Shown: piece after piece, positions 51,419 to 53,921 of the stretch
Position numbering within the stretch: the first letter of the stretch is position 1
Layout of the letters: the number at the start of each line of letters is the position of its first letter
Origin: Nitrospinia bacterium
GTDB lineage: Bacteria > Nitrospinota > Nitrospinia > JACRGO01
DNA length: 64,000 bases
Assembly: GCA_029261755.1 (NCBI GenBank)
Contig: JAJDAS010000247.1
Span: 1,616-65,615, forward strand
Direction of reading: 5' to 3'
Translations under genes and position numbers: made by a program
The notes under the pieces: model-generated
Database searches by the model: none
What the model was told of the DNA's origin: nothing
Seen by the model: only the letters and a program-made list of their open reading frames with translations

Positions 51419-53119
51419 ATGCCCATGAGGAAATGGAAAGACCTGAAAATTAGCTACAAATTGATCATCCTGGTTGGGTTCACAGTGTTTGTTTTAAACA
51501 TCCTGGGGGCGGTTTTGATGATTTCCAACAAGGAAAAAGCTCTTGTAAAGGCATATCACGACGCGGCCTTTACAACCACGCAGCTCCAGCGAAATATGGT
51601 TGTGGAAGTGATGAAGGTACGTCTTGATGATCCCGAAGACCTTGGCGTAAGCATACTGGATAACTGGCTAGGGAAAATGAGCGAAGCTACCCATGGGATT
51701 TCCTGGGTAGCATGGCACCATAAAGTTATCAAAGACCAAAGGGAGAGTGGGTCGGATGTCATGGAAGAGCCGAAGGATGAAATTGACAAAAAGGTAATTG
51801 GCACAGGAGAAGCTGTTTTTGAAATGGTCAATCTCCGGTCTGATCTCTTTCCGGAAAACGGTTTTCGAAAAGGAGATACCGTCTATCGGGCAACGATCCC
51901 GGTAATTCTGGATGGAGACCCGGATACCAGTGTGGAATCCTGCCACACTTGCCACGAGGATGGTATGGGACAAAAGAGCGGGGAAGTTATAGGCGTTATA
52001 AGTATTGGCCTTCCTATGAGTGAAGATATCATGGAGTTAGGCTCTTTCAAAACCAGGGCAACCATTGGTGCCCTGTTAATTTCTCTTCTGGTGGCTTCCC
52101 TCATCTTTGTTTTGGTCAGGAACCTGATCACTAAGCCATTTGATAAGTTCAGAGAGGTCCTTGTGGACATTGCCCGGGGAGAAGGAGATTTAACCAGTAG
52201 ATTGGAAATTAACTCAAAAGACGAGATCGGAGAAGTTTCTGAAGTATTCAACCAGTTCATCAGCAAAATAAGGGAAATAGTAATTCAAATTAAAGATATT
52301 GTTTTGAAGGTAGCCACGGCCTCTAATGAAATGGCCTCATTTGCTGAAGATGGGGCGAGGGTTGCAAAAAAACAGGCGGCCACATCCGAGGAAGCCGCAA
52401 GTGCCGTTGAAGAAATGTCCGCAACCAGCGTCGAAATGGCCCAGAGTTCCTTAAAAGCAGACCAGTCTGCGTCCTCCACATCCCAAATGGCCGACAAAGG
52501 GGCTGAGATGGTTTCTCGAACAACGGAAGAGATGAAAAAAATAAAAACCGCCGTGGAAGAAGCTGAAATGGAAGTGGGTGAATTGGGAAAAAGATCGCAA
52601 GAAATCGGTGAAATTATTGGGGTCATAGATGACATTGCAGACCAAACCAACCTCCTTGCCTTGAACGCGGCCATTGAAGCTGCCAGGGCTGGCGAACATG
52701 GAAGAGGTTTTTCCGTAGTTGCCGATGAAGTGAAAAAATTGGCGGAGAAGACCCAAAACGCTACCGGGGAGATTTCCAATATGATACGGAACATGCAAAA
52801 GGAAACCGGCGAGGTAATAAACGCTATGAAAACAGGAAATTCTCAGGTTGATTTAGGGGTTACCATTGCGGGAGAGACGCAAAAGGCGTTTCAAGGAATC
52901 GTGGAGTTGGTAGCAAATGTCAACGACCTGATTAGCCAGATTGCCTCCGCTGCCGAACAACAGTCCGCCGCGTCTTCGGAGATTGCCAATAATGTGGCGA
53001 CAATATCGGATGTCTCCAAGGAAGCCACATCGGGCGCTGATAATTTAATGGACTCCGCGACTAAGATGAAAAAACTAGGTGAGGATTTAAATACCATAGT
53101 TAATCAATTCAAGGCTTAA
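51419..53119 (+). CDS. Methyl-accepting chemotaxis protein with a c-type-heme (CxxCH) periplasmic sensor domain
   Basis: It has two TM segments. The periplasmic region ends in ...[45 protein letters not shown], with CHTCH at nt 51941-51955. That pattern is typical of DUF3365/Tll0287-like heme-c PAS-like sensors. HAMP and the MCP hairpin follow ([40 protein letters not shown]). Confidence 0.9.
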
Positions 53120-53187
53120 TGGGGTTGCCGCTAAGAACATAACCAAGACGGTCCTCATGAACCATACAAATAGTAAAAACAATAGTT

Positions 53188-53432
53188 GCCCTGTAGGGGC
53201 TATATACTTCAGCCCAGGGTTAAAATACTCCGCTTTTTGAGTATTGCAACCCTGGGTTCCTTTTCATCATTTTTTTACCCTGCAGGGGTAACATAAAAGC
53301 GAGCAACCTTAGGGGTTTGTTTTATGCAACCCCTTCAGGGTTGAAATTTTGTTGTTTTTTAATCCCAGGGTTGCGGCATGTAACAAACACATGCCTTAAC
53401 CCTGGGCTAGCGTATGGTACCCCTTCAGGGTA
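53188..53432. repeat. Two inverted copies of a ~115-nt three-hairpin element (possible structured RNA or BIME-like cluster)
   Basis: Copy 1 consists of short hairpin GCCC-TGTAG-GGGC (53188-53200), long hairpin 53213-53256 and short hairpin TACCC-TGCAG-GGGTA (53276-53290). Copy 2 consists of CAACCC-CTTCA-GGGTTG (53327-53343), long hairpin 53364-53406 and TACCC-CTTCA-GGGTA (53418-53432). Both long hairpins share the outer stem CCCAGGGTT/AACCCTGGG. Their 7-bp inner stems differ but are each fully paired. Confidence 0.65.
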
Positions 53433-53516
53433 AAATTGAATGGTTTTTTTATTAAAACTTGCTGAACGGTTATAAATTAAAAAGAAAAAGCAATAAAAAA
53501 AAGGAGAAGTTTTAGC

Positions 53517-53921
53517 ATGGCAAAAATATTAATAGCGGAAGACGACACAATTATTCAAAAACTGGTTTCATTGAACGTGGAGAAAATGGGGCATATCGCT
53601 TTTATAAGCCCCAACGGAAAACATGCTTATGAGGCTTTGAAGGCAAATCCGGAGTTCGAAATCCTCATTACAGATATCATGATGCCGGAAATGAATGGAG
53701 AGGATCTTATTAAAACTTTACGGGGGAATTCGGCCTTTCAGGGCCTGCCCATAATCATTATGTCCGCTATTGTGGGATATAAAGATATCAAAAACCTTTT
53801 GGAGCTTGGAGCAACCCGCTTCCAGCCCAAACCTATAAATATGCCTCAGTTGAAGAAAAATATTGAGGAGTGCATGCTCGAAAAAAAACTGAGTGCGAAA
53901 AAAGAAGCCAAGGGCAAATAA
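53517..53921 (+). CDS. Single-domain response regulator (CheY-like)
   Basis: 134-aa ORF with ILIAEDD, ITDIMMPEMNGED, IMSA and PKP. A strong RBS, AAGGAG, lies upstream. Confidence 0.88.
   Translation: MAKILIAEDDTIIQKLVSLNVEKMGHIAFISPNGKHAYEALKANPEFEILITDIMMPEMNGEDLIKTLRGNSAFQGLPIIIMSAIVGYKDIKNLLELGATRFQPKPINMPQLKKNIEECMLEKKLSAKKEAKGK

Follow-up and report, generated by a model that had tools for sequence, protein, structure and literature searches.

The 64,000-nt stretch of DNA analysed here (henceforth referred to as the window; contig JAJDAS010000247.1 of the Nitrospinia bacterium assembly GCA_029261755.1) contains an intergenic gap of 397 nt between the stop codon of a gene assigned to a methyl-accepting chemotaxis protein (MCP; stop at 53119) and the start codon of a gene for a receiver-domain (REC) protein (start at 53517). 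A first-pass annotation, made by a model from the letters of the DNA, had described a pair of three-hairpin modules between 53188 and 53432. A profile built from eight copies of the sequence (nhmmer) matched contig positions 54743-55087, which correspond to window positions 53128-53472, and the repeat unit is thus larger than the block first described. With a probability of about 0.8, we read this block as a composite mobile repeat, present here as an old copy without a gene, in which a REPIN-like doublet belonging to a Y1 transposase element is set in ends of the type found in the insertion sequence (IS) family IS66. Coordinates are window positions unless they carry a contig (C) or locus (L) prefix; G000 denotes the window's own genome (a draft of 653 contigs, 5.6 Mb and 44.8% G+C) and C-numbers its contigs, G001 is a congener, and L-numbers are loci retrieved in the searches. 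The features of the locus are as follows.

53127-53473, plus strand: whole repeat copy, a composite non-autonomous element (nhmmer, blastn)
53127-53140, plus strand: left terminal inverted repeat of IS66 type, eroded to a remnant, GCCGCTAAGAACAT, a weak match (5 of 14 bases) to GTATCTATTCAGCG of copy C376
53188-53200, no strand assigned: short hairpin 1 (outer, left arm), GCCCTGTAGGGGC, kept in every copy
53213-53256, no strand assigned: long hairpin A, with outer stem CCCAGGGTT/AACCCTGGG and inner stem AATACTC/GAGTATT
53276-53290, no strand assigned: short hairpin 2 (inner, left arm), TACCCTGCAGGGGTA
53291-53327, plus strand: variable centre, where autonomous relatives have the Y1 transposase gene (C249 and C442 compared; pairwise alignments)
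53328-53342, no strand assigned: short hairpin 3 (inner, right arm), AACCCCTTCAGGGTT, with a T-rich spacer after it
53364-53406, no strand assigned: long hairpin B, with outer stem CCCAGGGTT/AACCCTGGG and inner stem GGCATGT/ACATGCC
53407-53417, plus strand: conserved linker CTAGCGTATGG, beginning CTA, between long hairpin B and short hairpin 4
53418-53432, no strand assigned: short hairpin 4 (outer, right arm), TACCCCTTCAGGGTA
53460-53473, plus strand: degenerate right IS66-type terminal inverted repeat, TGCTGAACGGTTAT (10 of 14 bases shared with CGCTGAATAGTTAC)
51419-53119, plus strand: upstream neighbour, a 566-aa open reading frame (ORF; the MCP of the first-pass annotation), outside the element, with its stop 8 nt before it
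53517-53921, plus strand: downstream neighbour, a 134-aa receiver-domain ORF, outside the element

The plus strand of the window copy is the coding sense of the Y1 gene in the autonomous relatives, and the position of its left repeat was obtained by aligning copies C376, C138 and C201, in which that repeat persists. The short and long hairpins build two mutually inverted modules: the reverse complement of TACCCCTTCAGGGTA differs from TACCCTGCAGGGGTA by one base, the long hairpins A and B have 2-nt internal loops (AA..GC and its inverse GC..TT), and both inner stems are perfect 7-bp helices. A repeat finder returned 38-nt inverted arms (53186-53223 and 53396-53433), and the pattern CCCAGGGTT-N20-40-AACCCTGGG was matched twice in the window compared with no match in 100 shuffles. 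Everything that the first-pass annotation had said of the sequence of the gap, its hairpins, stems and internal loops proved correct. Folded as RNA (plus strand), the 261-nt core (53180-53440) gave -126.5 kcal/mol compared with -72.0 ± 4.7 kcal/mol for shuffles (z = -11.5); folded as DNA (minus strand), the same interval gave -66.8 kcal/mol (z = -10.4). Since the arms pair with each other in the minimum-energy fold, from which the two unlike inner stems protrude as local hairpins, the doublet is predicted to have two alternative forms, a set of six local hairpins and a single long, branched one. The centre between the arms (53291-53327) is the least conserved part among copies and retains ACATAAAAGCG (compare ATAAATAAAATGC at the start of the Y1 gene) and TTTTATGCA (compare TGATTTTATGTA past its stop). 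An extra small hairpin in this centre (AACC-TTAGG-GGTT, 53305-53317) is probably fortuitous, because it is not conserved in the other copies.

The block belongs to a family dispersed through the genome. A blastn search with the whole gap found eight near-full copies at 79-90% identity (the named copies aligned with that of the window are C376, C511, C448, C138, C84, C201 and C357), together with copies of the left half only and of the right half only, and a profile search gave 77 matches at ~40 loci; the absence of further copies, which the first-pass annotation had named, together with a lack of significant covariation, as fatal to its proposal, is therefore not what the genome holds. Long hairpins of the window type occur 14 times exactly and 29 times near-exactly. 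All full copies are inverted doublets, 19 of 19 copies checked are intergenic, and, relative to co-directional neighbouring genes, six of the copies checked lie in the same and four in the opposite orientation, so that the orientation bias looked for as a sign of terminator use was not seen among them. Because the element is dispersed and occurs in both orientations relative to its neighbours, it is specific neither to the window locus nor to an operon. Among the roles proposed earlier, a mosaic resembling the bacterial interspersed mosaic element (BIME) comes nearest, in that this is a genome-wide doublet of the repetitive extragenic palindromic (REP) or REPIN type, whereas a functional structure peculiar to the locus does not survive. 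The congener G001 offered no orthologous empty site for comparison, since its best MCP match (71% identity) is not followed by a REC gene; the 244-aa ORF that does follow, which we take to be kdsB-like, is unrelated to the REC gene.

The dispersal of the family bears directly on two local explanations. The first holds that clustered CCCAGGG/CCCTGGG and CCCC-N3-GGGG palindromes upstream of a gene form an operator array (CCCWGGG palindromes) for a DNA-binding regulator of the chemosensory/phosphorelay genes; the same block, however, stands beside unrelated genes at ~40 loci and in many phyla, and its stems covary (see below), which is unexpected under selection for a fixed protein-binding sequence, and we consider this explanation close to untenable. 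The second is co-option of the copy to terminate transcription, or to act as an insulator, between the MCP and REC genes. On the plus strand, long hairpin A is followed by TTCCTTTTCATCATTTTTTT and short hairpin 3 by GAAATTTTGTTGTTTTTT, the latter being listed as terminator-like in a consensus scan, and REP elements are established to affect termination and mRNA stability (summarised in PMC3733652). Against this, the T-tracts are interrupted, the scan returned two terminator-like sites compared with 1.0 ± 1.0 in shuffles (that at 53327-53343 being the only one on the plus strand), and the family lacks orientation bias. Co-option of this kind is unlikely, and would in any case be a side effect of insertion that leaves the identity of the element unexplained.

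That identity is indicated by the genes with which the hairpins are associated. A Pfam Y1_Tnp search of G000 found three genes for proteins of ~150 aa, namely C249:1819-2274 (151 aa), C442 (which has a premature stop) and C610, whose products score 79-81 bits against PF01797 and 59-60 bits against NF033573 (IS200), above the cut-off of 55 bits of the latter. Three-hairpin modules, inverted with respect to each other, border each of the three genes to the left and to the right. Alignment of the gene-less doublet C19 with the C249 element matches it at either end: the left part extends as far as the ATG, and on the right the match begins again 10 nt past the stop codon. The window copy retains ...GGGGTAACATAAAAGCG and TTTTATGCAACCCC... 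at the places that match the borders of the Y1 gene. The right arm of C249 carries the type-A inner stem (that of long hairpin A), whereas at the same place C442, a copy with 92% identity, has only a short loop at the apex; the apex of the long hairpin is therefore exchangeable. Beyond the hairpin arms of the C249 element (C249:1660-1700 and 2425-2450) there is an outer inverted repeat, CCTAAGGTTTATACAC / GTGTATAAACCATAGG, and TATTA stands on both of its flanks; the second copy, C442, has no clear right partner.

The same association recurs in other genomes. Across one-genome-per-species contigs, a pattern describing the module only (long hairpin, linker, short hairpin) was found at >120 loci compared with ~0.1 expected by chance, and these loci span Planctomycetota, Verrucomicrobiota, Acidobacteriota, Lentisphaerae, Bacteroidota, Parachlamydiaceae and metagenome-assembled genomes (MAGs) of Syntrophobacterales and Desulfococcaceae; in most matches the upstream short hairpin, which lay outside the search pattern, is present 21-27 nt before the long hairpin. 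Full-length Y1 homologues (38-51% identity) lie at 11 of the pattern loci, seven of them within ~120 nt of a module, and all five module-bearing genomes of other phyla that were tested encode between one and five such homologues. Within the window's own class the Y1 protein occurs in only 3 of 120 genomes (G000, G012 and G014), two of which (G000 and G012) were also module-positive in a DNA search of 41 relatives, and the Y1 genes of G012 and G014 are flanked by modules of the same architecture with other stems (for example CAGGGGG/CCCCCTG and GCAGGGAC/GTCCCTGC). A sequence-agnostic detector, defined as a perfect 7-bp hairpin, CT, 10-15 nt and then a G+C-rich 4-bp hairpin, placed outward-facing modules beside 21 of 25 Y1 genes (12 on both sides) compared with 4 of 46 control windows; these 25 genes were homologues from several phyla, obtained by protein search.

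Some of these loci show further arrangements of the module. In Desulfococcaceae bacterium HSG8 (JAUCGG010000002.1), modules lie inside long GTGATGC tandem runs (L059:7150-7560 and L059:4100-4470), and the two arms are also found in reversed relative order (tail to tail), which makes each arm an independent unit. A head-to-tail array of at least seven units with a 75-nt period (L050:67-860, a Planctomycetota MAG) and an array of ~35 matches to the Rfam family RF01687, discussed below, that has a ~70-nt period and extends to either side of a Y1 gene (L161:873-3389, Desulfococcaceae HSG8) resemble BIME clusters. In another Planctomycetota MAG, a group II intron D1-D4 match (RF02005, 58 bits; L015:3501-3696) lies no more than 1-2 kb from three modules and a Y1 gene.

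The partner protein has the features of an IS200-like enzyme. The 37 homologues conserve H.vFSTK.R, DHvH (the HUH motif), F.WQ.GY and YI..Q..HH, followed by a C-terminal block, F..E....L.K.....DERY.WD (also written F.xE....L.K.....DERY.WD). The Y motif of the C249 protein, YINNQEEHH, fits the Y---Q--HH signature of TnpA-Y1 subclass 1.2 (Quentin, Siguier, Chandler & Fichant 2018, PMC6006769). According to these authors, members of subclass 1.2 are present in low copy number, are not IS-like, generally lack secondary structures at their ends and are found mostly in Cyanobacteria and Bacteroidetes (PMC6006769). The proteins studied here share with it the Y---Q--HH motif, low copy number and the absence of an IS-like organisation, and their conserved C-terminal extension may correspond to the C-terminal domain of the subclass; they differ in being accompanied by elaborate conserved hairpin modules and in occurring in phyla of the Planctomycetes-Verrucomicrobia-Chlamydiae (PVC) group, in Acidobacteriota and in the window's lineage. 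Class 3 TnpA-Y1, which is known from Planctomycetes and Acidobacteria with high-copy structures and has the motifs NHVH, W[TA] and YV..EQ (PMC6006769), was rejected as the partner, the corresponding motifs here being DHAHIL, WQNGYG and YINNQ.

We considered what the unlike inner stems of the two arms reveal. Stem A is always in the left arm and stem B always in the right arm (8 of 8 near-full copies), and the difference between them is therefore the result of one ancestral event in a master copy that was then copied, and not of repeated covariation. When stem types A and B and a third one, GGCGTGT/ACACGCC, are compared with one another, each of the seven pairs is different at both of its bases. 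Changes within one stem type are single and uncompensated, that is, they are uncompensated decay. The idea that the inner stems are independent mini-elements nested in the hairpin loop was rejected, since all 12 occurrences of the type-A stem in the genome lie inside this long hairpin and a genome search likewise found the type-B stem solely there. Across the superfamily, the closing pair of the short hairpin, which the search pattern left free, is A-T in 68, G-C in 46, T-A in 15, C-G in 2 and another combination in 17 of the 148 distinct pattern-found modules, and this distribution points to real covariation. The view that structure is conserved while sequence is not, put forward earlier on the strength of stems A and B, consequently holds for the superfamily, where it agrees with the closing-pair counts and with the Y1-flanking modules that combine unlike stems with the same architecture, but not as covariation between A and B.

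The modules also differ between their two strands. The fourth pair of the short hairpin is C.A 15 times and T.G three times when read in one orientation, so that the opposite strand carries G.T wobbles five times more often, and the long hairpin is more stable on that same opposite strand in 60 cases compared with 29. Because of this wobble asymmetry and strand difference in stability, the module would seem to function as a single strand with polarity, a property with which both single-stranded DNA (ssDNA) and RNA are compatible. The base after GGGCT is A in 68, G in 52, T in 23 and C in 5 of the 148 modules; the foot of the long hairpin on the opposite strand thus reads N-T/C/A-AG (TAG in 68/148, CAG in 52/148 and AAG in 23/148), its fourth base not being fixed. 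In 101 of 120 cases the insert at the apex of the long hairpin folds better than its own shuffles, although only moderately so; minimum free energy relative to shuffles was used for this comparison, a symmetric pairing count being prone to under-count owing to 1-nt bulges.

The second component of the repeat is its outer frame. IS66 elements have inverted repeats that start with GTAA and are bordered by 8-bp direct repeats. Copies in G001 have perfect terminal inverted repeats, GTAACTATTCAGCGT/ACGCTGAATAGTTAC, and perfect 8-bp duplications, GAAGAAAC and AAAAATTC (L002 and L007); in this congener the long hairpin of the family is of a short version, and both a ~135-nt monomer and a ~270-nt doublet are present. 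G000 contains 20 inverted-repeat pairs spaced 100-450 nt apart, with flanking 8-mers that agree at 8/8 positions in six pairs and at 7/8 in four, compared with a control mode of 2/8. Some of these miniature inverted-repeat transposable elements (MITEs) with IS66 ends contain the hairpin doublet and others have unrelated interiors (C33, C84, C383, C162 and C409). One MITE family with the same repeats has a G/C-rich interior with CCCCCTTAGAAAAGGGGG hairpins; its copy at C162:5608-5841 has a 9-bp duplication, ACGATATTT, and that at C409:28267-28456 an 8-bp duplication (7/8).

An IS with the same ends is present in G000, where at least 10 contigs stop 25-141 nt inside an IS that begins with the same 14-mer repeat. 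Because so many contigs break inside it, this multi-copy IS66-family IS is a main cause of the fragmentation of the assembly. The left-end type contains an ATG (MAIENIKIEESIEYVRKL), and the right-end type, when translated from the opposite strand, gives ...FRSMDGAKIFCRVRSYLSTARK...FAE*, a peptide whose stop codon falls within the inverted repeat. The contig ends are as follows.

C336:1-138, C515:1-138, C525:1-138 and C496:1-25: left-end type
C154:3224-3364, C279:3017-3152, C65:10020-10151, C385:2-140, C234:21532-21627 and C258:13476-13534: right-end type

Class-wide protein searches for the interior of this IS returned only terminal remnants, in G001, G004 and G021, of which the homologous one in G004 matches Pfam DDE_Tnp_IS66; an exact-pattern metagenome scan with the right end from G000 found nothing. 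A protein-based metagenome scan recovered complete elements of 1.5-1.7 kb with the ends GTAACTATTCAGC...GCTGAATAGTTAC, and the family consensus repeat, GTAACTATTCAGCG, forms the ends both of these complete elements and of the contig-breaking IS. All six complete-element copies with matching flanks (L190, L192, L195, L219, L238 and L258) have perfect 8-bp duplications. The 482-aa ORF of L195:1849-3294 encodes an IS66-family transposase (NF033517, 293 bits with a cut-off of 180; PF03050, 152 bits), to whose N- and C-termini the end peptides from G000 align, the N-terminus resembling the left-end peptide. A 9-mer, GCGGCATGT, is common to the left end of the IS and the B inner stem and is compatible with chance (~0.3 expected, by our own estimate).

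The shared inverted repeats, the 8-bp duplications and the IS66 ends in the same genome, together with the same-repeat MITEs that have unrelated interiors, would also be accounted for if the block were a plain IS66-family MITE, that is, a deletion derivative of the IS in which the internal hairpins are incidental and the Y1 association irrelevant. However, the interior bears no likeness to the IS ends beyond the 14-nt repeat and is collinear with both ends of Y1 elements, and the same doublet occurs without this repeat in other phyla and, within G000, in a frame of a different 36-nt inverted repeat; a full-length IS66 element with subterminal three-hairpin modules is so far absent. A plain MITE is thus quite an improbable description. 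The block resembles IS-mobilised bacterial MITEs in lacking coding capacity, in having repeats identical to those of an IS (GTAACTATTCAGC) whose ends are in the same genome, and in its 8-bp duplications. It departs from them in that the interior is not derived from the IS but is the end-doublet of an unrelated HUH Y1 element, which makes it a chimera of two transposition systems and one that bears on how MITEs form.

From the repeat family and its architecture, the association with Y1 genes, the shared inverted repeats, the target duplications and the complete IS with the same ends, we infer the following history for the composite repeat. The core (53188-53432) is an inverted doublet of a ~105-nt module (short hairpin, long hairpin, CTA-linker, short hairpin), and the module would be the end structure of elements that encode a ~150-aa IS200-like Y1 (HUH) single-strand-DNA transposase; loss of the gene between the two arms would have left the doublet as a REPIN-like non-autonomous partner. 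The TnpA of IS608 and the TnpA-REP of E. coli recognise hairpins as ssDNA. By analogy with such IS200/IS605 TnpA proteins and with the REP-associated tyrosine transposases (RAYTs), the hairpins may act as ssDNA, and recognition by the Y1 enzyme probably depends on the long-hairpin base and the (N)YAG foot, with an apex that merely needs to pair; if so, this would explain why the inner stems of arms A and B are unrelated and yet perfect. In this genus the doublet presumably became enclosed by the 14-nt ends of a single-ORF IS66-family IS and was then amplified as a MITE. Because the copies carry 8-bp target duplications, the DDE transposase of that IS, acting in trans, was most likely responsible for spreading the subfamily and for bringing in the window copy. 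The window copy would accordingly have arrived as an IS66-type MITE and have decayed since, a mode of arrival inferred from better-preserved copies.

Several observations weigh against this history or restrict it. The window copy itself is eroded: its left repeat is nearly erased (5/14) and its right repeat degenerate (10/14), and its 8-nt flanks, ATGGGGTT / AAATTAAA, mismatch, so that it is an old insertion with no target duplication; the first-pass annotation had held the pattern not to be expected of a decaying duplicate, yet this copy is itself decaying. The interior of the IS66-type IS is not assembled in G000. Modules in other phyla lack the inverted repeat, IS66-like repeats having been looked for beside them and found absent, with short hairpins as the unit boundaries there, and the IS66 frame is therefore lineage-specific. 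The congener G001 (90% complete) has the repeats and no detectable Y1 gene. The Y1 protein is not a classical RAYT (22.5 and 20.2 bits against NF047646, with a cut-off of 80), and the structure of the E. coli RAYT was not among its sequence matches in the PDB, which were solely TnpA proteins of the IS200/IS608 type. Finally, apical inserts in other phyla pair at 0.58 of positions compared with 0.45 in shuffles.

Published systems offer a partial precedent for the doublet and its gene. REP/BIME and REPIN sequences with their RAYT (TnpA-REP) genes make up REPtrons (Bertels & Rainey 2011, PMC3116915; Di Nocera 2013, PMC3733652). Like these, the family consists of dispersed extragenic palindromic repeats, forms inverted doublets able to fold into one long hairpin, occurs in clusters or tandem arrays (L050, L161), and has a low-copy Y1 HUH gene that is flanked by the same inverted repeats and far outnumbered by gene-less doublets. 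Unlike a REPtron, it has a protein that is IS200-like and not RAYT-like (Y motif YINNQEEHH, not YIxxNP), a unit that is a ~105-nt three-hairpin module and not a single palindrome of 20-40 nt, a 5' foot that appears to be NYAG and not a fixed GTAG, and, in this genus, a doublet also framed by DDE-type inverted repeats with target duplications. The closest published concept is that of the TIRtrons or TIRYTs, Y1 genes flanked by long, sometimes dispersed inverted repeats (Di Nocera et al. 2013, PMC3733652), which our elements resemble in that the long inverted repeats bordering the gene are in part self-complementary and are found dispersed as well. Systems of the REP/RAYT kind were reportedly also treated by Nunvar in 2010 and Ton-Hoang in 2012.

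The module also has a counterpart in Rfam. The consensus of RF01687 (Acido-Lenti-1), CCUAGCgC-loop-GcGCUAGG, CUAauuUAUgcC and GUgCC-UUC-GGcAC, corresponds to the long hairpin, the linker and the outer short hairpin, and the window has this architecture at 53398-53432, where AACCCTGGG-CTAGCGTATGG-TACCCC-TTC-AGGGTA is found. Both have an 8-9-bp hairpin, a 12-nt linker that starts with CUA and has a central UAU, and a 5-bp hairpin with a 3-nt loop. The long hairpin of the window differs in its stem sequence (CCCAGGGTT) and in its 7-bp apical extension, and the Acido-Lenti-1 model omits the inner short hairpin and the doublet, Rfam filing the family as a gene for a small RNA (sRNA). The match in the window (53400-53432) reaches 16.6 bits (E = 0.4) compared with a gathering threshold of 37, and no RF01687 match was returned for the left-arm module; assignment of the window copy to any Rfam family was ruled out, a scan of 52900-53700 (E <= 1) having given chance-level matches besides that to Acido-Lenti-1.

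At the level of the genome, the two families have much in common. G000 contains 86 RF01687 matches, 32 of them at or above 37 bits, mostly as inverted pairs ~152 nt apart, and the long hairpins of the window are 151 nt apart; at one match (C77) the same inverted repeats of IS66 type are present, as is an 8-bp duplication. CCCAGGG-type modules that flank Y1 genes score 24-29 bits against RF01687. Above-threshold matches likewise flank Y1 genes, with 55 bits on both sides in inverted orientation at L164, arrays at L161 and L167 and a single match of 37.2 bits at L159, and L168 has sub-threshold matches of 35.9 and 31.5 bits on the two sides of its Y1 gene. Doublets in G000 occur in two frames, one of IS66 type and the other a 36-nt inverted repeat in which Acido-Lenti-1-type doublets are found. 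There are ~40 of the latter (hairpins GTCCC-N3-GGGAC and CCCAGCGAT..ATCGCTGGG), and their ~36-nt frame reads (C)GTTCCCAGGCTCTGCCTCAATGGCATTAAGTTAAGG / CCTTAACTTAATGCCATTGAGGCAGAGCCTGGGAAC. Examples are as follows.

C409:8409-8606, C468:3690-3886, C68:20025-20222, C407:12608-12805 and C417:334-531: doublets framed by the 36-nt inverted repeat

Weinberg et al. (2010, PMC2864571) gave no function for Acido-Lenti-1, marked the family 'COV' and noted that it sometimes lies close to group II introns, a remark echoed by the intron neighbourhood at L015; a 2026 preprint describes the family as abundant and of unknown function. The filing of Acido-Lenti-1 as an RNA raises the question whether the block in the window is itself a structured non-coding RNA, either an sRNA or a cis-acting element, with hairpins that work after transcription, for example by processing or stabilising an MCP-REC transcript. 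Its very stable fold, the covariation in support of pairing (as in the 'COV' mark of PMC2864571) and the strand asymmetry of the fourth short-hairpin pair (C.A 15 compared with T.G 3) all speak for this, although the asymmetry fits any single-stranded form. In marked contrast, an RNA function is difficult to reconcile with the occurrence of copies in both orientations relative to co-directional neighbours, with inverted doublets and tandem arrays that put the 'functional' orientation on both strands, with units that flank a transposase gene in many phyla, with the inverted repeats and target duplications in this genus, or with uncompensated decay within stem types, and a scan for promoter-like sites in 52900-53700 found none. 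We therefore regard an RNA as a very unlikely identity for the block.

The composite mobile repeat, in kind, is ordinary mobile DNA, and its meaning for the locus is correspondingly modest: the gap would be without a regulatory RNA dedicated to the chemosensory/phosphorelay genes and would instead hold a decayed mobile repeat 8 nt past the MCP stop codon, any influence of which on transcription continuing into the REC gene would be incidental. Its wider interest is that it suggests a testable identity for an abundant orphan Rfam family, in that Acido-Lenti-1 and its sub-threshold relatives appear to be the ends or gene-less doublets of Y1 elements. The family is still of unknown function in the literature searched, and the partner Y1 proteins are little studied and belong, by their motif, to a subclass published as lacking terminal structures. 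Without such an identity, annotation pipelines would record copies of this kind as sRNA genes or pass over them. More speculatively, the doublet may be non-autonomous cargo shared by two unrelated transposition machineries, in which case its folding back could juxtapose the flanking inverted repeats and so explain its repeated capture as the core of DDE-type MITEs. We hold this idea to be possible but doubtful; were it true, HUH and DDE transposon ecology would be linked through the doublet as a module from which MITEs generally form, and Acido-Lenti-1 would be partner sequence at the DNA level and not an RNA gene.

Two further sequences were noted in G000. At C616:8665-10160 a diverged (79%) left end of the IS is followed by frame-shifted ORF fragments on the opposite strand, which by eye seem to resemble a transposase of the IS256/mutator type. 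At C44:9784-10569 (L009:1378-3762, minus strand) a 794-aa ORF contains RNase_H_2 (PF13482, 85 bits) and, at its C-terminus, DDE_Tnp_IS66 (95 bits), a combination of domains that is unusual in the IS66 family; the ORF has no relation to the inverted repeats described above.

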